A stretch of DNA of 55,526 bases from a virus: positions 1 to 55,526 of IMG/VR virus record IMGVR_UViG_3300022664_000329. One strand, 5' to 3'. A model generated the notes under the pieces. It searched no databases. It was not told the DNA's origin and saw nothing but the letters and a program-made list of their open reading frames with translations. Positions within the stretch are counted from its first letter, which is position 1. The number at the start of each line of letters is the position of its first letter. This document shows, in pieces, positions 3,779-34,200 of this stretch. The position numbers and the translations under genes were made by a program.

Positions 3779-3807
3779 CAGACAACAAGGTTCAAGGACC
3801 ACAACAC

Positions 3808-3833
3808 GCCTTCCTCCCGCCAGGGAGGAAGGC
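3808..3833 (+). terminator. Perfect 11-bp stem hairpin just downstream of the capsid gene (attenuator or RNA-stabilising element; no U-run)
   Basis: gccttcctccc-gcca-gggaggaaggc, read directly. Confidence 0.4.
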
Positions 3834-3855
3834 ACAGAGAAAGGAGCTTACAACT

Positions 3856-4314
3856 ATGTTACAGCAAGGAATCATGGCGCTCCCCTACGACGCCTATATC
3901 GATTACGACGACACGCTGGGTGTCGATCTGGACCAGGCCGCCGCAGACGTGGGATTTTTCAAAATTCCCATGAAGTGCGAGGTCATTGAAGCAGGCGGCA
4001 TCGTGACGGAAACGTGCGGCGGCGCCACCGGAAAGCCGGAGTTCGATTTCGATCTGCGTCCCGTCGCCGGCTCCGACGCGAACCGCGAAGCCGGCGCCAT
4101 CGGCCACCTGGTGCTCGGCGCCACGGCCGCCGGAAAAGTCATGTTCGACAAGGTCGCCCGCGGCACGATCCTCGAACCCGGGCAGGAGATCGTCGCCCAG
4201 GTGCAGACGCGACCGACCGGCGACGGCGCCGCCGGTCACCTGCGACCCTACGTGCTTGTCAAACCGCTCGACGAGGTCAAGGGCAATCTGGCCAACATGA
4301 TCGAGACGACCTAA
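3856..4314 (+). CDS. Hypothetical virion-module protein (152 aa)
   Basis: SD aaaggag lies 9 nt upstream of the ATG. Located in the head module. Confidence 0.5.
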   Translation: MLQQGIMALPYDAYIDYDDTLGVDLDQAAADVGFFKIPMKCEVIEAGGIVTETCGGATGKPEFDFDLRPVAGSDANREAGAIGHLVLGATAAGKVMFDKVARGTILEPGQEIVAQVQTRPTGDGAAGHLRPYVLVKPLDEVKGNLANMIETT

Positions 4315-16268: not shown

Positions 16269-19200
16269 ATGCCGGACACCGACCGCCGCAATCATCACGA
16301 CATTGGCTATGGAGAGGATTTCTACCGAGCTTTAGACCCGCATTACCACGCGCCCGCCGCCCTTCCCGAAGCAAAATCAAATAACGATGCCGGTTATGGA
16401 GAGGATTTCTACCGGACTTTAGACCCGGATGCGCCGGCAACGCAAAAATCGCCTGCGGTCAAGACACCGTTACAAAACGCCCCCGAGCAACGCGGATTTT
16501 TCAAGGAAGCGGCCTCCGCGCTGGCTTCGGGCGCCGTCTCCACGGCGGAAGCCCTGACGTCCACAGCCGAGATGATCGGCGTGCCGGGCGCCGAGCGCGC
16601 TTCTTCCTATCTGCGCGGCGTGCAGGAATCCGAAGCGCTGGTCCGCCCCGATTATCTGCGCTCAGGCACCGTCCTGGATGAGCCCGCCCGCCTGGCCGAC
16701 TGGCGCTGGTGGACGAGAACAGTCGGAGAAAATATTCCCAATGCGCTGGCGATGCTGGTTCCGGCCGGCGCGGTAAGCAAGCTGGGCCAGATCGGCAAGC
16801 TCGGCACACTGCTCAAGGGCAGCGCAACCGCCCGCCGGGCCGCCGCCCTGGGCGCCGGCTTTTCGGCGTCCTTTCCCCTGGAAGCCGGTTCGGCGTATTC
16901 GAGCGCGAAACAGGAGATGTCGGCCACAGGACAGTATGACGCGGATACGATCGAACGCATTGCCACGGCCGAAGGCCTGGTCGCCGGAACGACAAACGCG
17001 ATTATCGAGCTGCTGCCGATCGACAGCCTGCTTTTCAAGCAGTCCGGCGGCGATCGGCTGCTGCGCCGCATTCTCCGGCAGGCGTACATCGAGGGCGGCA
17101 CGGAAACGGTGCAGGAGGCGGTCAATATTCTGGTGGAGCAGTACGGGCATGCCCCCGACGCCACGCTGAAGGATCAGATCGGCCGCGTGATCGAGGCGGG
17201 ACTGGCCGGCGGGGTGATCGGCGGCGGTTTCGGCGCGACGATCGGCACGGCCGAGCATCGCGCAAAGACCAACGCCTATTTGGCCATCGCGCATAAAACG
17301 GACCTGGATGAAGATATTGTCCGCTGGAAACAGGAGGACCTGCCGGACAAAAACATTGCCGAGCTGGTATCCGCAAGGCTCGATGACTACCGCCGCAGCG
17401 CCGCGCCCGACGAAACAACGCAGATTCCCGCCAAGATCGACGCGGCGGAAATGGTGTCGTTTGTGCTGTACGGCTCCGGCAGATTCCAGCCGGACCGCTC
17501 CGGTGCAAAAAAGAAAGCAGCCGTTTTACGCGCGATGGGCATGAAACCGAAAACGCCGCCCGCGGAAATGCCGATGACGACATCGGCCGCCGACGGCAAG
17601 GCGGTGATCACGGAAGAACAACGCGCCCAGGCGCAAAACGAGCGGGCCGCCGCGAACAGGAAGGCCCAGGGAAAGACGTTGTTCGACGCGGTGGCCAGCG
17701 AGGACCTGGCCGAAACGCAGGCGATCGAACAGGCGCGCCAGGATGACGAGGCCCGCCGCAATGCAGAAACGGTCCGCCTGGCCGCCGCCGAGCAGGCCAG
17801 CCGGGATAAGGCGGTAGCAGACGCCCAGAGCCGGCAAGACGCGCTCATCGCCCGCCTGGCCGGCGCTGATCCGCAAAAGCAGGCCCTCGTCCAAGACGTG
17901 CTGGGGCTTTCGGAACGGGCGCTTTTGTCCGCTGTGCAAAAAGAGCTGAAGCTGACTGTTACGCCCGCCGGCCCGGGAGCTTACACGGTGGAGACGCCCG
18001 GCGGGCCGCAGCCCGCCGATCTGTTCGATTTACGGCAACGCCTGGCCGAAAAGCGCTCGGCCGATTTTACGGCCCGCCAGGACGAGGAAGCGGCAAACGC
18101 GGCCGCGGTCCGCCGAATGGAAGAAGAACAGGCCCGGAAAAAAAGGGAGCGGGAAGCCGCCGCCGCTCTTGATATGTCCCGCCGTTCCCTTGTGGCTTCG
18201 CTTTCCGGCCCGACGCCGCAGCAGTTGGCCCATCTCAATGCCAACCGGCAGCGTTTGACGCCGGACGAGATTGCACGCCTGGACCGCTGGATGAAGAAGG
18301 ACCGCGACTCTGCGCCGGTGTCGCCGCCGCCTGCGCCCCGCCCGCCGGCTGTTATTTCGGAAGAGGTCAATGCCGCCGCCAAAGCGGCGCCACCCCCAAA
18401 GCAGGACAACGGGCAGGATGACGAGGCGGCCCTGGTCGATCTGATGCTGTCCGATGTGGCCAACGCCCGCAAGGGCGGAGAGCTGCGCACGGACGATGCC
18501 GGAGAAACGATACGGGACACGGCGGGCATTGCCTGGCTTACGGCCGCGAACAGAGCGGGCGCGGACGTAACGGTGAAGGACGCTAAAACGGTGCTCAACA
18601 AGGTCAAGACCGGAGAGGACCTGACGGAGCGCCAGCAAAGGCAGCTGACGGCGATTCTGGACGCCATGCGGGCGGCCGGCGGGGCGAAAGTCACGCAGGC
18701 GCTTTCCTGGGCGAAAAAAGGCTATATTCCGGTGGACAATCGCCGCATCGCCGTGCGCGACATGGTGGAAGGCGACTCCTATGTGATCGACAACGAGGAA
18801 TTCCGCGTCACGGATATCGATGACGCAGGAAATGTCACGCTCAAAGACGGAACGATCAAGAAGGTCCGCGACGGCGAGATGCTGACCGGCGTGGATTTTG
18901 TGAAGCCCGTGGAAGGCGCGGAAGATTTCAGCGGCGAATCCTTTGACGACGCCATGAAAAGAGTGGAGAGCGAAGCGGAGCCCCCCCAAGCGCCGCCGGT
19001 TCCCGAGAGCCGAAAGACGCCGCCCGCTTCCGTCGCCGTGACGACGGGGCTGAAAACCAAAGCTCCGGAGAAACGGGATATTTCGCAACTGGCCGGCGAT
19101 CTGGCCGCCGGACGTATCGCGCCCGGGAAATTCACGTTTCCCGCAGATGTTACGCCGCAGGAGATAAACGAGGTCTGGGACGATCTTTCCGCCGCCGTGG

Positions 19201-22200
19201 AAAATATCGCCAAGAAAAATGAGCCTTTCATCCGCGCTCTGCATGAGGAAATTGATGCGCTCGGCCCCGCCCGCACCGCCGCTATCAAGGCGCAAAAGAA
19301 AGCGCTGCTGGATAAGATCCGTGCGCTGCAGGACGAAGCCGATGCACTTGACCGCAAAATTACCAACGCATTTGAAGGCGCCCAGGCGCAGCTCCTGGAC
19401 ACAATCATTGAACGGGCCAAGGCCGAAGGTCTGTTTATTGACGACGCAGAGTCGGAAGAGGTTTATGAGCTGTATTCGACGCTACAGGAAGGACGTTCTC
19501 ACGACCCGCTCTTTATCGACGGGAAAATCCCGGAAGATTACGTCAATACCTGGACTGTCCCGCTGGCCGAGCAGATTCTGGATGAACTGCGCGCCCAGCA
19601 GCCTACCGGCGATGCGTATCCCGTCCCCAACAGTTCCGGCGTGTACAATGAGAAGCAGAAGAAAGCCGAAGTGATTAGCTTCCCGCAAAACAAAGCTTTT
19701 GACGCGGCCGTCTATGTCTTGCAGGTCGGTCCCGAAGAATGGATTTCGGCCGAGGACGTTTCGCTCAAAACCGGCAGCTATGCGGGACAGAGCTCGCCGC
19801 TGACGAAAAATCCGGTTTTCCCGACGCGCAAAGCCGCGCTGGCCGACGCGTTGAAAACGGTGCAGCAGTTCGGCGAAAGCAATGCCCGGGATGCCAGTTC
19901 GCCTGCAACCGACAAATCGCGCAAGGCCGCCGCCCAAATCGCTCAATGGGCCGAAAAGCAATACCTGGAGCTTTATCCGCCGTCGCAGGCGCCGTCGCAG
20001 GCGGTCGCCGTGACGACGGGGCTGAAGAAGACTCCGGAAACGGCGCCGCCGCCAATAATCAAACGGATTCTTGATATTTACGGGAGATATCATTACGTCG
20101 ACCAAAACGAATTGCAGGGCGATAGAACCATTCTTAAAACTTATAATAGCCGCGGAGAGCGCCTGCTCGCCGGAGGCGGAATCCACAGAGGATATATCGT
20201 TAATCAGGAAGACACCAGCGCCGTCGAGAAGGCAAGGAAAGTGGCGAGGTTGAGGAGTCTCGAAACCAAGGCGCAGAAAGAAATGTTGACGGATGGGGAA
20301 ATAAAAGAAACCAAAAGTCTCATTGCGGAAATCTACAACAAACCGGTTGAAAAACCCTCCGAACCTGCTACAATCCCCGACGTGACACCCCCCAAGGGGA
20401 CGGCCGACATACCCGCCAAGATAACCCCACAGGCCGAGGCGTGGAAAGACAAAATAGAAGCAGATGTAAAAGACGGTTGGTATATTCATGGTAGAAGGGG
20501 CACGGATGATCTTCTTTCTGAATTTAAAAAGCATGAAATATTTGTGTCAAAAGAGGCCGATGTTGCAGAAGATTATGCTGGCAACAAAGGTTCAATTTGG
20601 CAGCTAAGACCAAAGAAAACGGCAAACATCTTAGATGCGACCGACGACATTCAACGAACCGAAGTTGTCGATAGGTTAAAAGAACAGTATGAAAGCGGTG
20701 ATCTTAACAACGGCGCATATACTAAGCTCTCGCAAGAGATTGATGACGAAATTGAATCCTACGGCGAAGGCAAAGCATGGGAAAGAATATCTGAATCACT
20801 AAATCCGAAGGATATCGTTGAAGATGAGGGATTTTATAGCGATACTGACTTTGTAAATTGGCTTTACGAAAACTTTGAATACGATTTTGTTTCAACAAAT
20901 CGCGGAGGCGTTGCCTATAATCCAGATGCTTTCGATCTAAAGAAATTCAACCCTAACCCATCCCGCCCCCCGGAGGTTGGGGGGCAGTCTGTAAACCTGT
21001 CCACTGAAGATCTGTTTGGGGCCGTTGAAAAAGCCGTGACGACGGGGCTGAAACCGAAAAAGGCCGCCGCCCTGCCGCCCGAAATGCCGATCATCCGCGC
21101 CCGCCTTCAACACCTGAAAAGCCTGGGCGTAAACACCGCCGGATATGATGAATGGGTAAAGGTTATGGAATCCGGCGACGCCGCGGCGCTGGCCAACGAA
21201 CCGCCGGCACAAGATACCCTGCGCGCCATCAATCTGACCATTGCCGAGGAAGAAAAAATATTAAAGGCCCAGGCCCAGGAGAAAGGATTCGGCGCGGGCA
21301 ATACGCTCTTTACCGAGGACAAGGCGGCTAAGGCCCGGGCGATTCTCAAGGCCAAGTTGTCCGGCGCGCAGCTCAATGCCGGCATTGATCCGGAAATCCT
21401 CACGGCCGGCATCGACCTGGCCGGGTATTACATCGAAGGCGGCGTGCGCAAGTTTGCGGACTTCACTGCAAAAATGGTGGAGGATATCGGCGAGCAAATC
21501 CGGCCCTATCTCAAGTCGCTTTACCTGGCCGTGCGCAATTATCCCGGCTTCGACAATGCGGGAATGGAGACGGAAGCCGATATCGAAAAGTCCTTGACCG
21601 CCGCCGCCGCCACAGATAAAATCGCCGCGAAGGGAGAAAAAAGCCATGCCGATTCATCTGACCTTGACGCCGGAGCAGCAGGAAACGCTCCAGCGGTTGC
21701 AGCCTCTGCTCGACAAGCAGAACAAAACGCCGGAAGATTACCGGAAGATGTCCGAGCTGTTGTATCCGGAATTGAAGGCCAAGCTCGCCGCGAAGGGAGT
21801 GAAGTTCCCCAAGGCGTAAATCTCCCGGCGGAGATCCAGGCGCACGCCGAGCAGTACCTCTACCATGCCACTTACGCGGAAAAAATCGCCGGCATCAACG
21901 CCGCCGGCCTCGATCCGACCAAATCCAACCAATACATTTACGGCAACGACACGACGAAAAGGGTGTACCTTTCCCCGGACCAGGAGTTGTCTCTCGCGTT
22001 CGGCGACGTGCTTTTGCGCGTCCGGCGCAGCGCTCTGAATCAAAAGCTCCTCAAGGAAATCGCACGCCAGGGCGGTCAGGAAGTCTGGTATTTCGACCGC
22101 ATCGCCCCGTCGCTGATCGAACGCCTCACCCCCCGCGGCGAATGGGCCGCCCTGTCTGCGCAAACGGAGAAGATTCCGCAAAGCGTGGCCGTGACGACGG

Positions 22201-25200
22201 GTGCCAAAACGCCGAAAACAAAAGAATCCCCCTACATGGCCGCGGTCGGACTGATTTCCGGCGGCCGCGCGGACCGCGCCGTTGCCCGCGGTTATGTTTT
22301 TGCCTATGGCCCGGCGGACGCCGCCACCCAAAGTGAAATGGTAGGCCTCTTTTCGGGTCTGGCCGCCGATAAGCTCATCGAGGCGGGGATTACGATAGAA
22401 CGCAAAACGCCCGCCGCCTTCAAGAAAGGCGACCGCGTGGTGATGAAAAACGGCCGCCACGGTGAAATTATCGCCGATGAAAGCTACACGATGATCGCGG
22501 CCACGATCTTCGGTGGGCAGAGAAACGTCGAGCGCTACGAAAATTACCGCGTCCGCACCGACGCCGGCGCAGAATTCGGGATGATCAAACCGGAGGACCT
22601 GACGAAGGAAACGGAAAAACCGGCCGAACCGGTGGTTCCGGACATAAAACTCATAGACGGTCATTTTAACGAACCGGACCGTGTTTTAAACCGAATCGCC
22701 CTGCATCAAAGCAATGAACAGAAAAAACGTGCTTCCGCACAACGGGCGCGAAAGCAGGATAACATTGATAAATTATTAGAAGCCGCAGAAAAAGAAAAGC
22801 GAATCGCTGCTGGTTTGCGCGCCCGCTATGACGAATGGGCCGCAAAGTATCCGGACGAAGCGGCCAAGCACGCCCCGGCCAAGACGCTGCCGCCCATCGG
22901 CCAGGTGCATCCGTCGATCCGGGAGAAGTATGCGGCAAAGCCGACTGCCGCAGCAGCAAAAGCATATCCGGACTTGACCGTGTCCGGTCACCCCAAACCC
23001 GTGCCGGATCATCCGGATGCCTCTTATGTGGTTCATATCCGCAAGCCGGACTTGATCCCTGACACTTTCCGCGTCGTTGTGTCTGCACAACGCGCGGCAG
23101 GCGGCGGTTTCCTGACGCAGGCCGGAACGGGCATGACTCCGGAACAGGCGTATGACAATGCCCTGGCCAACTACGACAGGACCATTGAAACGCGGCGATC
23201 CTCCACCAACCAGGACGCTGAGAGCGTCACGAACACAACCACACCCGTTGACAACGAAAAAACAAACGATTATAATAAGATTGAACAGGAGGCCCAAGAT
23301 GCCCCATCTGACCGACACGATACAGACGAAACATCGTCTGAAGATGATCGAGCAGGCGCTCAAGGACCAGGCACCCGAGATGTATCAGCAACTTCAGACG
23401 AAAGGTCAACTTCCGGAGTATCTCAAGGAACGCGACGCGCTGATGATGAACACGTTCGAGGTCCTGTTCGTGGAACTCTGCAAGCTGCCATCCGACACGA
23501 ATCCGACCTATCAGGAACAAGTCCAGCACCTGACTTCCGCACGCAACCGGGCGTGGGAAGAAACAATGGCGACGTGGCTGACGTTCAGCGATCCGCAGCC
23601 GGAGAGCGAACCGACCATGTCATCACCCCCGGCGCCATAGACCGTACCGGTTCCTGGTTCCAGACCGCCAAAAACAATCTCGACATCATCGAACTGGCAA
23701 AAAAAATCCAGACGGAAAACCGTCCGGCAACGCCCACCGAACAGGCGCTGCTTGCCCGCTATACGGGCTTCGGCGCGTCGGAAATCGCCAACCGGATGTT
23801 TCCCGGCTGGGCCGAAGCGGGCGAGATTCAACTCTGGCGCGCCGATCAAAAATGGAAGCCGCTGGTGGAACGCATGCAAAAGCTGTTTTCACCCGCGGAG
23901 ATCGCCACGGCCGCCCGCTCTACGCAATACGCGCATTACACCAGCCCGGCCATTATCGATTCGATCTACAAAGCGCTTGACGGCTTCGGCTTTCCCGGCG
24001 GCCGCGTCCTGGAACCGGGCATGGGCGTGGGCTCGTTTTTCGGTCTGATGCCGGAATCGATGCGGACGACAACAAAATATACCGGCATCGAAATGGACGG
24101 GATTACGGCGCAGATCGCCAAGCTCTTATATCCTCGCCAGAATATTATTGAAGGCGATTACACCAAGGCGCAGTTTCCAAATAATTATTTCGACCTGGCT
24201 ATCGGCAATCCTCCGTACGCCAAAACGATGATATTGGCCGATCCGGATTACAAGAAGCTGCGGTTGTCGCTGCATGACTTCTTTTTCGTCAAATCCCTGG
24301 ATAAAATCCGCCCCGGCGGGCTCATGGTGTTCATCACGTCGCGCTATACGATGGACAAGGTGGACAGCCGCGTGCGCAAAATCCTCAATGAAAAGTCCGA
24401 CCTCCTGGGCGCCGTCCGCCTGCCGCAAACGGCATTTGCAAAAAACGCCGGCACGGAAGTGGTAACAGACGTGATTTTTCTGCGCAAGAAAGTCCCCGGC
24501 GAAAAAAGCGCCGGGATGATGTGGGGCGAAGTCGCCCCGGTTACTACGCCGGAAGGCGATTTCCGCATCAATGAGTATTACCTGGCCCACCCCGAAATGG
24601 TTCTCGGCGATCATTCCGGCCGCGGCACAATGCAAAATTCCCGCGATCCGCAATACACGGTCCTGCCCCGCGAAGGCAATATCGAAGAGGCGTTTGCCCA
24701 GGCCGTCACCCATCTGCCCAAAGCCGTCTATTCCCTGATCAAAGCCGCGCCGGCGGTGCAGGAAGCCGCCGCGATCGAAAGGGACTTCAATCCACAAAAC
24801 AAGAAAGAAGGCGGCTTGTATCTGTCCCCCAACGGCCAGGTGATGGTCACGGAGTCCGGAGCCGGTGTGCCGATTACCGCTATCGCCCCGAAACTGTCAG
24901 ATAAAGACAGGCGCTGGTTGACGTCCTATATCACGCTCCGGGACGCGGTGAAGCAATGCCAGTATGACCAGCTCACCGACGGAGACTGGGAGTCGTCGCT
25001 CAAGGAACTCAACAGGGTGTACAAGGCCTTTAAAATGGCCTGGGGCCGCATCAATGCGTTTACGATCACTGAACGCAAATCCACGGACGAAGACGGAAAG
25101 GAAATCACCATCCATCTGCGCAAATTCGCCAACAGCCGCCTTTTGCGCCTGGATGTCGAATCGCCGCTGGTCATGGCGCTCGAAAAGGTGACGGAAGATT

Positions 25201-28200
25201 TCCAGATCGCCGACGGCCCGTTTCTTTCCAGCCGCACGATTAAAAAACCGGAACCGCCGCAAATCTCCACGGTCGCCGACGCCCTGGCCGTTTCGCTGAA
25301 TGAAAAGGGCCGGCTCGATCTCGCGCATATCGCGTCTCTCATGGGCGCCAGCGAAGCCGATGTCTTCGAGCAGCTGGGCGATCTGGTCTATGACACTCCG
25401 GATAAAGGCATTCAACTTGCCGACGCCTATCTGTCCGGCAATGTGGTGAAAAAGCTGGAGGAAGCCAAGGCCGCCGCGAAAATCGATCCCAAGTACGAAC
25501 GCAATGTGCAGGCGCTGATCGCGTCTTTGCCCAAGCCGCTGACCGCTAAAGACATTACGCCTTCTCCCGGCGCAACCTGGATTCCGCTGCCCGTGTATAA
25601 CGATTTTTTGCACGAGGTGCTTGAACTGCCCGAAAGCGCAGCCGCCGATCATTCCCCCGCCGACAACCAATGGACAATTTCCGGCCTGCCCGTGCAGTCG
25701 CAGCGCGGCCGCGCCTCCGCATGGTCATCACCCGACCGCGGCGCAAATGAAATTTTCTCTGCCGTTCTCAATAATGCGACGCTGAAGGTCTATAAGACGG
25801 AAAAAGTCGCCGGCGTTGAGAAGACGTATCTGGACCCGGCCGCGACGGCGCAGGTCAACGATATCGCCAAGAAGATGAAAATCCGTTTTCGCAACTGGGT
25901 ATGGGAAAACGCCGGCCGCGCGCACGAGCTCCTGAATATCTACAATTCCACCCGCAATAATATCGTGCCGCGGCGCTTTGACGGTTCGCACCTGACGCTG
26001 CCCGGCGTCTCTTTGCGCTTTAAGCTCATGCCGCACCAGAAAAACGCGATCTGGCGCATCATCCAGGACGGCAATACCTATATCGCCCACGCCGTCGGCG
26101 CAGGCAAGACGTATGAGATGGTCGCCGCCGGCATGGAAATGAAACGCCTGAGCCTGATTTCCAAACCGCTCTATGTGGTGCCCAACCATATGCTCCAGCA
26201 GTTTGCCAACGAGTTTCAGGAACTCTATCCGCTGGCGCATGTGATGGTGGCGGACGAGGAAAACTTCCATACGACGAACCGCCGCCGTTTCATGGCGCAA
26301 GCCGCCCTCAATAATCCCGATGCGATTGTGATCACGCATTCCGCTTTCGGTCTGTTAAAAATGAAGCAGGAAAACATCCTGCCGGTGCGCAATGACGTCG
26401 TCTCTGAAATGCAAGCCGCACTGGATGATCTCGAAGGCGATAAAAAAGCCAACCGCATCCGCATTAAACAGATGGAGGCGCGCATCGAACAGACCGAACA
26501 ACGTTTTGAATCCATGATCGCCCAGGGCGACAACGTCATTACGTTTGAAGATATGGGCGTTGATTTTCTGTTTGTGGACGAAGCCCACCAATTCCGCAAG
26601 CTGGATTTTACGACCAACCGCCAGGCCAAGGGCGTCGATCCGTCCGGGTCGGTCCGCGCTATGATGCTCTACATTAAAACACAATGGCTGGACCGTCAGA
26701 ACCCCGGCCGGTCCCACGTATTTGCCTCCGGCACGCCGATTACCAACACGATGGGAGAACTCTACACGGTAATGAAGTTTTTCGACATGGACGGGCTCCG
26801 GCGCGACGGCCTGGACTATTTCGATTCCTGGGCCGCGGAATACGGAGACATGAACTCCGCGCCCGAGATGAACGCCGCCGGCCGCTATGAGATTGTCGAT
26901 CGCTTTTCCCGTTTTGTGAATGTGCCGGAATTGATGAGCCGGGTCCGGTCGTTTATGGACGTTCTGACGTCCTCGCAGCTCGGCGCTTTTGTGAAACGGC
27001 CGAAAGTGCGCGGCGGACAGCCGACGATCGTGGTGACGCCGGCATCCCCCGCCCTCAAAAACTACCAGACGAATGTCCTGCTGCCGCGCATTGAGAGCAG
27101 CAAGAACTGGAAACCGAGTAAGGAGGAGCCCGGTAACCCCGACCCGCTCATCAATATCATCACGGACGGCCGCCTGGCGTCGATCGATATGCGGTTCGTC
27201 GCCCCCGGTTCTCCCAATGATCCGGACAGCAAACTCAATAAGTACATCGACAAGATTATTGAGCATTACAAGGAAACCGCAGGCCATACCTATCTGGACC
27301 CGGCCACGGGCCAGAAAAGCCCCGTTCGCGGCGCGGCGCAAATCTGTTTCTACAATCACGGATTCGGGCGCGGTGTGGCCTCCAGCCGCGGATTTGACGC
27401 CCGCGCCTGGGCCATGCGCCGCTTCAAGGAGGCGGGCATCCCGGTCGATGAAATCGCCTGGATTGACGATTTCGACACGGCCGCCAAAAAAGAAGCGGTG
27501 ATGAAAGAGGTCCGCAACGGCCACAAACGCATCCTGATCGGTTCGGCGAAGAAAATGGGCACGGGCATGAATGTGCAAACCAGGCTTTCTCACATGACGT
27601 ATCTGGATCCGCCCTGGTATCCGTCCGACGTCGAACAGCCGGTCGGCCGCATTCTGCGCCAGGGAAACCAAAACGAAGAAGTCGGCATTTTCTATTTTTC
27701 GACCAAGGGCAGCTATGACGCCACCATGTGGCAGATGGTGACGCGCAAGGCCAAATTCATTGAAGACGCTTTGGCCGGCGGCGGCGCCCGCGCCATCGAG
27801 GATATTTCCGAGTCGTCGCTTTACGAAATGGCCGCCGCCCTGGCCTCCGGCGATGAGCGCGCCATCCGTCTGGCCGGACTCAGAAACGAGATTGAAGGGC
27901 TGGAAAATCTGCGCTCCGCGCACTATCACACGCAGACGAATCTCCAACGTGAAAAACGTCTGTATGAAATCGGCCATCCGGGAAAAAAAGCGTATGTCGC
28001 CAAACTGGAAGCGGCGATGCAAAAAGTACCGTTCGATCTGCGATATTTATCCGCTCAGCATCCGATCAAGGCCAAACTCGGCCACCGGGACTATACGGAC
28101 CGCAAAGCTTTCGCCCAGGATCTCCTGGCGAAGATCGTGGCTCTGCGCAATGCCGGCACGGCAGGCACGACACCGATCGGCCATTTCTTCGGGCTGGAGT

Positions 28201-31200
28201 TGCGTGTTGTGCAGGCGCAGGGCGGAAACACGGAAGTGTGGGACCGCAGCGGACAGACGGAATTAATCCCCGGAAAGGTGGTCAATCAGCTCCAACTGCG
28301 CATTACGGATGATGTGATCTATGACGTCGCCAGCGATATCACGGATACGTCCGACGCGCCGGGCCTCGTGACCCGGCTCACGAACCGCGCTAAAGCCGTG
28401 CCTTCCGATCTGGCTCAGGCGAAACAATCACTGGAAGAAACCGAAACGGAACTTAAAAAGATCAACGCCCGTCTCGGCGCGCCTTTTGAGCTGGCGCGTG
28501 AACTGGAAGAAAAAATCGCCGAAGCGGCGCAGATTGACGCCGATCTGGTCCGCGAAGGACAGGCCACCGCCGCCGCACAACAACAGCAGCACACTGCGCC
28601 GGCGCAAACACCCGATCAGACTCCGCCCGACACTTCCGGGCCGATGCTTTCGCTCGAAGAAACTCCGATATTTTTCTCGCAGATGTCCCGCGTGCTCCAG
28701 GCGAAGCTCCCCGGCTCCGGAACGCCCGAACAGTACCGCTCCGCGATTGTCTCCTGGGCCAACAAGGGCGAATTCAAGGCCGACGAGTTGAAATGGTCCG
28801 GGCTCACCGACTGGCTGGTGGCGCAAAAAGGGAAGCTCGCCAAACAGCAGGTGCTCGATTATCTGGCGGCCAACGAAGTGCAGCTCCGGGAAGTGCATCT
28901 CTCCGACACCCCCTCCGATCCGCAGCTGGACCGTCTGAAAAACGCCTTTGCACAAGCCGAGGAGGGCGTACGGGCTATCGAGCAGGCGCTGGGCGCCCGT
29001 CCCTATATGTCCGGTGCGCCTCTGCGCTGGATGTACCGGCCGGACGACGAAGCGCCCCGGAATGTGCCGAAGCAGTATTTCGACACGCTGGACCGCTGGT
29101 CGGAAGCAAGACTCGACCTGGATGATTACCAGGCCACCCATGAAGGATTTTTTGAAGAAGATGAGGAAAGCACCGGCCGTACGCAATACTCTAATCAACA
29201 ACTTCCCGGCGGAAAGAATTACCGGGAACTGCTTTTGACGCTGCCGGAAAAGAAAACCGTCCCCACATTGAAGCACTCTTACCGTTCCGCCCATTGGAAC
29301 ACGCCCAATGTTCTGGCGCATGTGCGCTATAACGACCGGACGGATGCCAACGGGAACCGCGTCTTGTTTCTGGAGGAAGTCCAATCCGACTGGCATCAGG
29401 AAGGCAGAAAAAAAGGGTATGCTGACGACAAAATTACCAGGACGCCGCCGACCCGGGACGAAATAGCGCAAGAGATTTATGGTGCGCGATATGCGGACCT
29501 GGACACGGTAACGCAAAGCGCCGTCGATGGAGAACTTGACGCCAGAATTCATGGCACCGGCGGCGCCGCGCCTGCGACCAGCGGCATCAGTTACGTTCCG
29601 CCTGCGCCGTTTGCCAAGACCTGGCATGAGCTGGCCATGAAGCGGATGCTGCGCTATGCGGCTGAAAACGGCTACGACAAGGTGGCTTGGACCACGGGCG
29701 AACAGCAGAACGAGCGATACAATTTGAGTAAGCATATCGAGAGTATTGGTTACCACAAAAGGGGCGATTTGTTCGCGCTCACCGTTTGGGATAAAAAAGG
29801 CAAGGCTATATACCAAAATCAATCAACCACGAAGCAAGAGGTTGAGAACACCATCGGCAAAGAAATGTTGCAAAAGATGGAAGCCAATGTCGGACGCCGG
29901 GAAAATGGGAATTTTTACATTGAAGGTCTCGACCTGAAAGTCGGCGGCGAAGGAATGAAGGGCTTTTACGATACGATCCTGCCCGCCTTCGTGAATAAGT
30001 ATGCGAAAAAGTGGGGGGCGAAAGTCGGTACAGCGGATATCCGGACGGAAGCATTAAACAGGACGCCTGGAGCAGCTAAAGCTGATACGGTATCCGTGCA
30101 CGCGATCGACGTCACGCCCGCGATGAAAGAGTCCGTCCTGACCGGGCAGCCGATGTTTTCGCGCCAGGATAAAACAGCCCACCGGCGCCCCCATCGTCTG
30201 GGCGACGTGGAGCTGGATGAGATGGTGCAGCAGCTCGCGGCGCTGCTCAAGGGCGTGAAAATTGTCAAACACGGAAACGAAATCCGGCTCAAAACCCGAT
30301 CCGGTGAGGAAGTCCGGATCGAATCCGCCGAGCAGATCGATCCGGACACCATCGCGCTGGCCATCAAGAAGCATTATTCGCAGGATAAGAAGCAGACGCC
30401 GCAATCCGGCGCAGGCGTGGCCGGTATGTATTCGGCGGGCAAGATCACGCTGGTGGAGGATGTGGCGGGCATCTGGACGCTGTCCCATGAGTTTTATCAT
30501 TTCCTCGAAGACATCGGCGCGATATCCAACGCCGACAAGGCAACGCTGAACCGCAAAATTGCATATCTCGTCACGTCTCAACCCGAAACCTATGGCTATC
30601 TGCAGGAGCGGTCGCTCCCCGAACAGCGGGCCGATTACGTGGGCCGCACGCTCACGGGCATGTATGACGCGACGACGCCGACCGGCACGATCCTGGCGCG
30701 CATCCGCGAAGTCATCGACCGCATTCTCAACGCGCTCGGCATCCGGACGGCCCGCGGCATCCTGCGCGATATTGAAACCGGGAAGATTTATAAGGACCAA
30801 GGGGAAAGGAACAAGGGGCAAGAGAAAGGGAAAACTCCCCTCCTCCGGCAGGATATTGACAACATCCGGGAACGGGCTTATACTTATGGTGAAGGAGGTA
30901 AGCATGAGACATCTGTATCCGATTCCGGATTCGACGGAGAAGGTAGCCGGCAGTATCCCGGACGAGACGCCGCCTTACGGTTCCAGCCGACCGTCGTCGG
31001 CCGCGAAAAGAAAGGCTCCATCCCGGCCGCAGGACGCATCGTCCGAACACCACACGACGCCGCGAAAATCGCAGCAACGTATCTAAACAAGTATCCAGAT
31101 GAACACATGATTTCCCTTGTCCTTGATGCCAAGGGCAAGGTCATCTCCGTGTATCATCACACCAGCGGCCTGCCCGGAAACTCCCAGGCATCGATGCCGA

Positions 31201-34200
31201 TTCTCGCCGGCGAAGCCATGAATACCCCCGGCGCGTCATCTATTATTGTTGCCCATAACCATCCGTCCCAAAACGCTGAATTTTCGCCAGAAGACCGTGC
31301 ATTTGCCCGCCAACTGAACAACTTATTGACCGGCTCCGGCGTGACCATGCGGGATTTTCTGGCAGTTGCACAGAAACAATATTCTTCTTACAGCGAAAAT
31401 ATGCTCGTTTATGTCGACGACAGCGTTGACATAAACAGCGCCAGATCAGGAGTAAAAATCCCTATTGTTGGCCGAATCTTTGAATCGGTACGCTCTCCCC
31501 TCCTCAAGGTTTCGTCCGCCGAGGATGCCTTGCCGCTGGCGCAGCAGTATATCCCCGACGGTGGAACATTGATATTGGATGGCCAAAACGCCCTTGCCGG
31601 TTTTTCCACTATTCAGAACTATGGACGAATTCGCGGCGACGCGCAGCGGGCTATTTTGCAGGATATCGAAAAACGAAACGGCCGCGCCATGATCGTCTAT
31701 TCCCCCGGTCGTATCGTCGGCACAGCCGAATCTTTTAATCTCGGGAAGTTTATTGCTGCAACCGGCGGCCAGGTCCGCCTGTTAGATATTATTGATTCGT
31801 CCGGCTCTCACGCGGACAATGGGGATATGCCCGCGATTCCCACGGCAGATTCCAGCTTGTTTTTGTCCGTTGCCGAAGATGTCACCGAAAAAGCGGCAGA
31901 CGCCGTCGGGCGCAAAGTCTCCCGCGCGGTCGATCTGATCACGGGGCGCGTATCTCCCGAAAAACGGGAGACGCTTTCCGCCCTGCGCAAAAGCTGGGCG
32001 GAATTCTGGCGGCCGTTTTCGACGGTGACAAACGGCGAGGAGGTCCTGGCCCGCCGCTATGAATCGATGGGCAATGTGGCCAAGGCGGTGCGGTTTATCG
32101 AGACGATGAAGGCGGAACTGGATCAGTTCCCGCCGGAAACGAAGAAAGATATTTTCTGGTATCTGAACGGCGACATTCCGCTGACCGTCCTGCCGGAAGA
32201 CGCCCAGACTTTTGCGAAAAATATTCATCGCCGGACGGAAATTATCGGTGAAATGCTGGTGGACCGCGGGCTCCTGACGGAAGAAACCTTTGAGGCACAC
32301 AAAGGCACGTACGTTCACTACCTTTACGCCAAGCATATCGTGGGCGAAGATGCGCCCGTGGGCATTACGTCGTCGGGCAAGCTGGATCTGTCCTACACGC
32401 TCCGGCGCAATCCCGATCTGACGATGCAGCAACGCAAGGAGCTGGGCCTGATCGACGATGCTTCCGTCGCCGTGCCGGTGGGCATGGGCAAGGCGCTCAC
32501 GGATATTGCGAAGTTCGATTACCTGGAGACGATCGCGGAAAATCCCGACTGGGTCTGGCAGCCGTCCGTGGTGCGTGTGGCCGTGGGCAAAAAGCTCAAG
32601 ACGCCGGTGATGGGCCGGACGCGGCGCTATGTGATGATGGGCATCGGCAAACTCCAGGAACAGGTCCGCACGTATGACGAGATGATGCGGACGCGGCCGA
32701 CTACCGAAGTGGCGGAGATCCACAAAATCCTCACGGACGCCTGGCAAAAAGAGCAGGCCAAGACGCAAAACGCGCCCGCCGACTTCGTGCAGCTGCCCAA
32801 CACGCGCGGCTACGGGCCGCTCGCGGGCGCCTTCGTCAAAAAGCCGATCGCGGACGATCTGCGCCCGGTGATGGATGTCAATACGGACCGCGGCAAACTG
32901 CTCAACACGGTTCTGGAAATCGAACGCCAGGGCATGGCGGCGTTCAAGATGGGGAAAGTCGCGCTCAATATTCCGACGGCCTGCCGTAATATCGTGTCCA
33001 ACATCATTCAGAACAACATGCGCGGCCGCGCGCTGGCGAAGATCCCCGGCGATATCGTGGCCGCCTGCCAGTCGATGAAAGCCAGGGACGCTCATTATGA
33101 AGAGGCGTTCGGCATGGGGCTGTTCCATACGAATTGGTTCGTGACGGAAATCAACGATGTGCTCCAGGAATTCCGCAAGATCGAGTCCGGCCGGATCGAT
33201 CAAATCCTGTCTGCGGTGAAAAACGTGGCGAAGTATTACGGCCGGATTGACGATATCAGCAAGTTTGCGATCTTTCTGCAGATGCGCAAAGCCGGCGCTC
33301 CGATCGACAAGGCCGCGATCGAAGCCATGAAATGGGGAATGGACTATTCGCTCACGTCGCGCTCGATCAAGGGGCTGCGCCAGACGATCATGCCGTTTGC
33401 GACGTACCAGTATAAGATCGCTCCGCTCATCGCCGAATCGCTGCGCAAGCGGCCCTGGGTGCTCGCCAAGTTCGCGCTGATTTATCCGGCGGCCAAGCTC
33501 GCGGCGATGGCGCTGCACGATCTGGACGACGATGACTGGGAGGACCTGGAAAAACAGCTGCCGGCCTATATCAAGAAGTCCGGCTCGATGATGATTCTGC
33601 CCTGGAAGACGGATCAGGATCAATGGCAGTGGGTGAATCTGGAGTATTATTTCCCGTTCGGCAATATGCTGGCGATTTTCCGCGATGCCAAGGCGCTGGA
33701 TTCCGGCGAGGCGCTGCGCGATCTGGGCATTTCCAATCCGTTTCTATCCATGTTCTACACCGGGCTTTCGGCCCGCGAGGATTCTCCGCCCTTGCATGCG
33801 TATTCCGGCATTCCGATTTACAATGAGCTCGATCCGGGATGGATGAAGGCGGCAAAATATCTGGAGTACATGGCCAATACGTGGCTGCCCGGCATGCTCA
33901 CGCGCCAGGGCGCCCTGGGCTACACGGGCAAAGCGATTGCCGGCGGCGAGGACCGCTGGGGCCGCGAGGTGTCGTTCGGCCAGGCGCTCGGCCGCTGGTT
34001 CGGTTTCAATATTGTCTCGGTGTCGCCCGAGCAGTCCCGCGCGCAGGTGGCGGTGAAGATCCAGGATCTGCACAAGGAGATGGCCCGGATCGAGGCCGAT
34101 CCGTCCCGCAGCGACGAAGCTAAGGCGGAATACCGCGCCCGGATGAATGAAGAGTTGTCGCAGATGGCCGAGCAGGCGCCGGCCGCCGTGCTGCCGATCA

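Follow-up and report, generated by a model that had tools for sequence, protein, structure and literature searches.

In lambda and many other phages, including those of the Bcep22-like group, the Rz1 spanin gene is a complete small gene that lies in the +1 frame inside the larger Rz gene, with a ribosome-binding site and a start codon of its own. This type of overlap is familiar to annotators. A second relevant system is the antirestriction methylase-helicase DarB of phage P1, which is packaged in the virion and needs small partners (DarA, Hdf, DdrA, and DdrB) that are produced from separate genes. A homologue of DarA has been reported as not found in the Bcep22-like group (PMC10269572, PMC6630229). 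Here we describe a 57-codon open reading frame (ORF) located in the +1 frame within a giant DarB-like gene of a phage genome segment (IMG/VR record IMGVR_UViG_3300022664_000329, positions 1–55,526). The entire 55,526-nt segment is called the window below. The ORF falls in a linker between two domains of the giant protein and is probably a live small protein-coding gene, whose expression and function we infer from the DNA.

The host gene and the features on which the argument depends are as follows.

16269–34556, + strand: giant ORF for a DarB-like polyvalent virion protein (6,095 amino acids [aa]; 18.3 kb), whose frame 0 reads through both embedded ORFs described here.

21234–21596, + strand (start coordinate approximate): conserved helical domain of the giant protein (...GIDPEILTAGIDLAGYYIEGG...IRPYLKSLYLAVRNYPGFDNAGMETEADIEKSL), right behind which the 57-aa ORF begins.

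21646–21819, + strand: embedded 57-aa ORF (MPIHLTLTPEQQETLQRLQPLLDKQNKTPEDYRKMSELLYPELKAKLAAKGVKFPKA; MPIHLTL...FPKA), with ATG at 21646 and TAA at 21817–21819, in frame +1 relative to the giant ORF.

The giant protein matches phrog_10089 ("DarB-like antirestriction"; E = 2e-165 for the methylase part), and its Pfam domains include an Eco57I-type methylase, ResIII/SNF2/Helicase_C, and RadC (RadC-JAB). With N6-adenine methylase and SNF2/DEAD helicase modules encoded in a phage virion gene block, it has the composition of a DarB-like polyvalent protein. The phage context of the window is evident from matches to a major head protein, a virion (structural) protein, and a primase, and structural genes are located upstream of the giant gene.

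A small ORF with the coding signature of a gene

The 57-aa ORF lies wholly inside the giant ORF on the same strand and in another frame, and thus it is an embedded ORF. The original prediction, made from the letters alone, described an ATG at 21646 with GGGAG 9 nt upstream, 57 codons, and a terminal TAA, and each of these elements is present. A hand count had given 47 of 57 codons ending in G or C in the +1 frame versus 18 of 57 in the giant frame. This count was reproduced, with third-position G+C (GC3) values of 0.82 and 0.31. Over 21646–21819, the G+C content by codon position is 0.58/0.32/0.82 in the frame of the ORF and 0.83/0.57/0.31 in the giant frame. The corresponding values for the giant ORF overall are 0.62/0.43/0.69, and its GC3 has a standard deviation of 0.117 in 171-nt windows.

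Nine other genes of the window served as the training set for a codon-usage log-likelihood. On this scale, the 57-aa ORF receives +21.3 bits in its +1 frame, whereas the giant frame over the same bases receives −17.5 bits. The true frames of other genes in the window score 23.2 ± 9.3 bits per 57 codons, and therefore the score of the small ORF is typical of them. Moreover, the difference between the +1 and giant frames at this location exceeds that in the remaining 5,729 windows of the giant ORF by 5.2 standard deviations. Along the entire giant ORF, frame preference flips only at 21618–21831 and 23289–23619, in both cases to the +1 frame and ending at a +1 stop. The boundaries of the flipped segment match the ATG with its ribosome-binding site and the stop codon. 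Computed coding potential had been proposed as a means to overturn the prediction, and it favours the +1 frame. The 57-aa ORF thus carries the coding signature of an embedded gene in its codon score, and selection is measurable only in the embedded ORFs of relatives.

The product is modeled by AlphaFold2 (single sequence) as a helix-loop-helix with a mean pLDDT of 76.6. Directly following the stop codon is a small palindrome.

21820–21835, + strand: palindrome ATCTCC-cggc-GGAGAT, directly 3′ of the TAA.

This palindrome is present as first described and carries no demonstrable signal. Its fold is ordinary compared with shuffled sequence (z = −0.08), no T-run lies behind it, and it is not terminator-like.

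Start signals and promoter-like sites

The GGGAG core at 21632–21636 (AAGGGAG), 9 nt before ATG 21646, provides the 57-aa ORF with a start of its own. Promoter-like sites are located upstream of this ORF and of two other +1 ATGs in the giant gene.

21594–21622, + strand: sigma-70-type promoter-like site, TTGACC–17 nt–TAAAAT (10/12), ending 24 nt (start to end) upstream of ATG 21646.

23248–23276, + strand: perfect sigma-70 consensus, TTGACA–17 nt–TATAAT (12/12), ending 23 nt upstream of ATG 23299.

23287–23292, + strand: ribosome-binding site AGGAGG of the second embedded ORF.

23299–23640, + strand: second embedded ORF, 113 aa, +1 frame, ending at the start of the methylase module.

30856–30884, + strand: third promoter-like site, TTGACA–17 nt–TATACT (11/12), ending 20 nt upstream of the +1 ATG at 30904.

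Only seven sites on the + strand of the 55.5-kb window reach 10/12, and three of these are 20–24 nt upstream of the three +1 ATGs. The three upstream regions (21646, 23299, and 30904) share the same geometry and can be aligned as −35/−10/Shine–Dalgarno/ATG-x-(x)-CAT-CTG. All three +1 ORFs start with M-x-(x)-H-L, with CATCTG located 3–6 bases behind the ATG in each.

The third internal cassette extends from 30856 to 31086. It has a Shine–Dalgarno sequence (GAAGGAGG) at 30891–30898 and a 60-aa ORF in the +1 frame (MRHLYPIPDST...) that starts at 30904, just before the RadC/JAB domain. The start signals of this ORF are strong. Its product, however, is rich in P and S, and its codon usage gives an ambiguous score (−2.0 bits, the maximum over the remainder of the giant ORF).

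Embedded ORFs at the same position in related phages

The helical domain that precedes the 57-aa ORF is common to other giant proteins. It yields 114 matches in viral contigs, shows 49–67% identity (best local alignment) to P0001–P0004, and corresponds to positions 1224–1354 of phrog_10089. All relatives diverge directly behind its end (...GMxTEAxxE). Related loci were retrieved via the methylase (11 viral loci) and via the helical domain (80 more). In the first metagenomic relative (53% G+C), a G/R/D/S-rich stretch extends from the helical domain to the methylase. This stretch has reversed periodicity, and its +1 frame encodes a well-formed protein. Among the 11 loci fetched via the methylase, eight carry a +1 ORF of 105–125 codons (from ATG) with a clear ribosome-binding site upstream, and these ORFs end at the methylase module or no more than ∼80 nt from it.

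To count such ORFs, we considered +1 ORFs of at least 60 codons that start with ATG and begin no more than 450 nt from the end of the helical domain. The giant frame remains open for at least 300 codons behind the helical domain in 71 of 72 unique loci, including 19 with a G+C content of 55% or less. A qualifying +1 ORF is present in 59 of the 71 loci, compared with one in the +2 frame. In the 19 loci of lower G+C content, ORFs of at least 80 codons occur 12 times in the +1 frame and never in the +2 frame. The original prediction had viewed the +1 offset shared by 21646, 23299, and 30904 as a recurring pattern. This view is correct, and the pattern reaches much further than the window: ORF 23299 belongs to a conserved family, and +1 ORFs are present in the 59 loci. 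At 30904, by contrast, start signals occur without coding-like composition.

The embedded ORFs of relatives fall into at least two families. An iterated hidden Markov model (HMM) seeded with the 113-aa ORF, which defines a TnpV-like family (family A), collects 46 embedded ORFs, comprising 45 from related loci and ORF 23299 itself (54.8 bits). Family B, which is unrelated to the first, occupies the same slot in 19 loci and encodes proteins of ∼120–140 aa with the pattern MYQVPxxVWNEIAxxQxL...LLVENEAISxYL.... No Pfam match was found for family B. Its members are located at about 3800–4200 in loci L019, L027, L031, L038, L041, L073, L077, L078, L083, L090–L092, L094, and others.

TnpV (PF14198) is a small protein of unknown function that is found on clostridial and other conjugative transposons. 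The 113-aa ORF scores 21.1 bits against this profile, which is under the gathering threshold of 27, and embedded relatives score 18–19 bits. The profile matches of the 113-aa ORF and several embedded relatives are in a consistent register (E = 3e-4 to 3e-3). A structure model of the 113-aa protein gave no significant match in the PDB.

Selection on these ORFs was assessed from the ratio of nonsynonymous to synonymous substitution rates (dN/dS; Nei–Gojobori method, 59 pairs). The embedded frame has a median of 0.37, compared with 0.98 when the same bases are read in the giant frame, and its value is the lower one in 56 of the 59 pairs. Diversity in relatives peaks at the third codon position of the embedded frame. 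Conservation of the A/G/S-rich giant segment among homologues, which would have spoken against the original prediction, was not found, as relatives diverge past the helical domain with a dN/dS of ∼1 in the giant frame. Neither of the two outcomes named as able to overturn the original prediction was obtained, and the prediction is supported. For start codons picked without regard to ribosome-binding sites, a ribosome-binding motif is present upstream of 33 of 55 embedded starts versus 7.7% of control ATGs (p = 3.5e-23). Judged from these sequence comparisons, the embedded ORFs of relatives are genuine, independently initiated genes, and the giant frame there appears to be selected only to stay open.

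A tblastn search with a family A embedded protein found matches in 21 GenBank phage records. The hosts and phages include Agrobacterium (Atu_ph08), Sinorhizobium (PBC5), Ochrobactrum (POI1126), Erwinia (PEp14, Pavtok, and Stean), Klebsiella (LASTA, SJM3, and SopranoGao), Pseudomonas (Itty13), Vibrio (VvAW1), and Microcystis (Mwe-JY07). Only the giant gene is annotated under these matches, except in the older PBC5 record (AF448724), which lists "orf33: unknown." In PBC5 (locus L040, 3760–4150), a one-base frame difference interrupts the giant gene and makes the family A ORF continuous with the segment upstream of it (annotated as "orf33"). This difference reflects either a sequencing error in the 2001 record or a natural truncation. 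An in-frame fusion of the PBC5 type was considered as the ancestral state and was rejected, because it represents a one-base frame difference relative to all relatives.

Gene callers suppress ORFs that are nested inside a longer ORF, and this explains how a conserved small gene can be unannotated in a whole group of podophages. The searchable literature contains no description of embedded ORFs in DarB-like genes. A survey of polyvalent proteins (PMC5512222) makes no mention of TnpV, frameshifts, or overlapping genes, and papers on phages Atu_ph08, JC1, Parlo, and CSP3 apply the term "embedded" to nothing but Rz1 spanins, apart from unrelated uses such as a network layout. It is well supported, then, that at least two conserved families of unannotated +1 genes are embedded in the linkers of DarB-like genes, and these apparently have not been described.

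A model for the 57-aa ORF

ATG 21646 is located 50 nt past the end of the helical-domain alignment, within the range observed in relatives, and thus the 57-aa ORF has both the canonical position and the canonical frame of an embedded gene. Its coding signature, its start signals, this positional equivalence, and the conservation of the embedded ORFs of relatives under purifying selection are all observed. The most likely explanation for this combination is that the ORF is an independently translated small gene. Ribosomes would start at GGGAGN9ATG and terminate at TAA 21817, yielding a 57-residue helix-loop-helix protein. Their template would be the long late mRNA or a short transcript driven by the promoter-like site at 21594–21622.

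Ribosomes translating the giant gene would read the same bases one position earlier, such that position 2 of each giant codon coincides with the purine-rich position 1 of the small gene. As a consequence, the giant protein has a hydrophilic A/G/S/D/R-rich stretch without hydrophobic residues. This stretch may be only a flexible linker, the out-of-frame shadow of the small gene, with staying stop-free as its sole constraint. Avoidance of stops is easy, since 30% of 58-codon windows in the corresponding frame of ordinary genes in this phage contain no stop.

In this phage family, the linker behind the helical domain normally carries a conserved small gene. The window has an additional feature between the helical domain and the methylase.

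21819–23290, + strand: extra giant-frame domains ("domain Y"), ∼1.5 kb, with normal frame-0 codon usage.

Domain Y is missing from most relatives, and its sole relative is a distant partial locus (L014) with 39% identity over part of the region. The 113-aa family-type gene of this phage is located behind domain Y and directly before the methylase, unlike the situation in most relatives. We propose that the standard copy (23299–23640) was pushed 1.7 kb downstream by the extra domains and that the 57-aa ORF is at the original position. The embedded proteins would probably serve as cis-linked accessory factors of the giant protein, for example as a chaperone, a packaging partner, or a regulator.

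Several observations weigh against the interpretation of the 57-aa ORF as a live gene. Its length is within chance, as 22% of 58-codon +1-frame windows in the genes of this phage are open. Because ORF length and the palindrome are both within chance, the signal consists of the reversed codon periodicity and the start signals, and not of the open frame. The product is about half the usual length of embedded proteins, and the arrangement is unique to the window among about 90 loci. Internal promoters were rejected as a family-wide feature, since upstream regions in relatives score like controls.

The lack of relatives is a further concern. No homologues of the 57-aa product were detected by word-indexed protein search, by tblastn against phages, or by back-translated scans of viral and genome contigs. 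An exhaustive phmmer search of 1.84 billion representatives gave five weak matches, all to internally repetitive proteins (TPR, MIF4G, and similar) with scores summed over three to seven stretches. The 57-aa product is not recognisable as a member of either embedded family, scoring 2.0 bits with the TnpV-like HMM and 2.9 bits with the family B HMM. The possibility that it is a truncated TnpV-like paralogue was tried and rejected, since hhalign gave a probability of 0.7% and aligned only a 13-column motif (YPELKAKLAAKG vs. APEMYQQLQTKG), which is not significant.

Other searches gave similar outcomes. No match of the 57-aa ORF to TnpV (PF14198) was found even at E = 10. Sampled relatives with domains inserted behind the helical domain have no short ORF there, and the closest helical-domain relative likewise has none. 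No close relatives with domain Y were found in which selection on the 57-aa ORF could be measured, and an exact-protein look-up of a neighbouring gene was also empty. No near-identical DNA turned up in GenBank phages or PLSDB plasmids.

Alternative explanations

The main rival explanation is that the 57-aa ORF is a remnant. Recombination could have brought in the domains at 21819–23290 together with the full gene at 23299–23640, leaving behind the promoter, the ribosome-binding site, and the first ∼50 codons of an old embedded gene. The codon signature would be kept because the event is recent, whereas function would already be lost. The half-usual length of the ORF, its unique arrangement, and the presence of a complete family member downstream are in line with this scenario. 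In addition, the motif YPELKAKLAAKG at the C-terminal end is similar to APEMYQQLQTKG, the family motif that falls ∼25–35 residues into full-length members, and both embedded ORFs of the window start with MP(I)HLT and have CATCTGACC in common. An exact direct repeat is also present.

21622–21636, + strand: repeat copy 1, exact 15 nt (TCGCCGCGAAGGGAG), read as IAAKG in the giant frame and holding the ribosome-binding site.

21785–21799, + strand: repeat copy 2, exact 15 nt (TCGCCGCGAAGGGAG), read as LAAKG in the +1 frame inside the 57-aa ORF.

The copies are spaced by 163 nt (1 mod 3), and copy 2 lies 18 nt before the stop codon. This repeat suggests a rearrangement at the junction. Other data argue against loss of function. 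The similarity to the family is not significant, and no DNA similarity exists between the region of the 57-aa ORF and the 5′ part of ORF 23299. Furthermore, the promoter-like site, the reading frame, and the stop are all intact, the codon score is that of live genes over the whole length of the ORF, and the product is predicted to form a compact helical hairpin. We consider a remnant to be a serious but rather doubtful explanation.

Two separate points concern the repeat. Deletion of one copy plus the spacer would cause the giant frame to end at TAA 21817 as ...AAKGVKFPKA. An ancestral two-gene arrangement implied by the repeat was evaluated and rejected, as there is no frame-0 start codon for a downstream gene.

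Another alternative is recoding. The sequence between the ribosome-binding site and the ATG includes a candidate site.

21637–21643, + strand: AAAAAAG run, a putative +1 slip site (AAA_A) for giant-frame ribosomes.

Ribosomes in the giant frame might slip +1 on GAA_AAA_A (21636–21642) with GGGAG as a stimulus, or might bypass between the ...AAG GGA G... copies of the repeat. The product would be a truncated N-terminal giant protein ending in the 57-aa tail or in ...AAKGVKFPKA. The tRNA-Lys could re-pair perfectly one base downstream, an SD-like (Shine–Dalgarno-like) element is present two nt upstream with prfB-like spacing, and one 15-nt copy is in frame 0 and the other in frame +1, each with a GGA. 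In PBC5, the one-base frame difference does place the embedded ORF in one frame with the giant-gene sequence upstream of it. However, the A-site codon would be AGC, which is neither slow nor a stop. No stable RNA structure that could act as a stimulator (z = 0.34), no Rfam family, and no tRNA were found at the 57-aa ORF. The family ORFs have their own ATG codons and enriched ribosome-binding sites and share no slippery motif, ORF 23299 lacks a slip site, and a 163-nt bypass would be unprecedented. Recoding is thus quite improbable.

Finally, the idea that no gene exists, with the reversed periodicity arising by chance from the composition of a low-complexity linker or from two compensating frameshifts that a tolerant linker has absorbed, gains some plausibility from the lack of homologues and from how commonly +1 frames of this length are open, but it is very hard to accept given a codon score that equals those of real genes and departs so far from the rest of the giant gene, signal edges that match the ATG with its ribosome-binding site and the stop codon (a compensated frameshift needs neither start, ribosome-binding site, nor stop), a promoter-like site upstream, and real, selected genes at the same position and frame in relatives.

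Other features of the giant protein

A peptide motif, (V)AVTTG(L/A)K, with P/K/T-rich flanks is present four times in the giant protein (19035–19055, 20007–20027, 21033–21053, and 22188–22208). The copies sit at apparent module boundaries, and few of the retrieved relatives have the motif (2 of 95 loci). It may mark a site of processing or a scar left by recombination. Right behind the 57-aa ORF is a giant-frame subdomain (21819–22253; ..YLYHATYAEKIAGINAAGLDP...VYLSPDQELSLAFGDVLLRV..) for which no homologue was found by word-indexed protein search. Its sequence motifs suggest that it may adopt an ADP-ribosyltransferase-like fold.

Implications

If the embedded proteins are real, then the odd G/S/R/D-rich linkers of polyvalent proteins can be explained as the shadow of small genes. 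Such loci would also be a clean example from nature of dual coding, with selection on one frame limited to keeping it open. DarB-type proteins need accessory factors that have not been found in this group, and the embedded proteins are candidates for this role. Several podophages of the affected group have been studied as candidates for therapy or biocontrol. As the 57-aa ORF indicates, orphan genes restricted to one lineage, or fresh remnants, can occupy the slot, where the birth or decay of genes could be followed.

A broader proposal is offered tentatively, as a possible outcome rather than an expected one. As a rule, the disordered inter-domain linkers of DarB-like proteins might be small out-of-frame genes (at least two conserved families plus orphans such as the 57-aa ORF) that have been missed in cultured phages, namely PEp14, PBC5, Atu_ph08, Pavtok, LASTA, VvAW1, and others. 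These genes would encode the missing accessory factors (DarA-like chaperones, packaging partners, or early regulators) of the giant injected protein. In the window, each would have its own sigma-70 promoter and would be uncoupled from late transcription.

Comparison with known systems

The embedded families of related phages are the nearest counterparts of the 57-aa ORF. Like the TnpV-like family and family B, it occupies the slot behind the helical domain in the +1 frame, starts from a Shine–Dalgarno–ATG combination, and is read through by the giant frame. In contrast, it matches neither HMM, has about half the length, and lacks relatives, and the 113-aa ORF is the true family member in the window. 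TnpV, like the 113-aa ORF, is a small helical protein of mobile elements, but TnpV genes stand alone and are not embedded.

Two recoding systems share local features with this site. As in prfB +1 frameshifting, a slippery codon that can re-pair is combined with an SD-like element (GGGAG-AA-AAA_A, 21632–21642). Unlike prfB, the site has no stop or hungry codon (the A site is AGC), relatives show no conserved signal, and each embedded ORF begins at a start of its own. As in T4 gene 60 bypassing, identical strings containing GGA are found at two sites.

The situation of P1 DarB, a virion-packaged enzyme that depends on small partners, is a parallel for the giant protein and its embedded ORFs. The P1 accessory genes are separate, and no sequence relation between them and the embedded ORFs was found. 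A functional parallel is a hypothesis.

The Rz/Rz1 genes offer the closest match in arrangement. The 57-aa product differs from Rz1 in having no cysteine and no hydrophobic N-terminus, so that neither a lipoprotein signal nor a lipobox is present, and there is no link to lysis. The host genes differ as well, since here the host encodes a 6,095-aa polyvalent virion protein, the overlap is located in an inter-domain linker, and two embedded ORFs occur in one gene. Moreover, the host frame in these phages appears to be unconstrained except for staying open (dN/dS ∼1). The architecture appears to be that of embedded genes of the Rz/Rz1 type, and what appears to be new is the host gene, the placement in an inter-domain linker, and the family-wide conservation.

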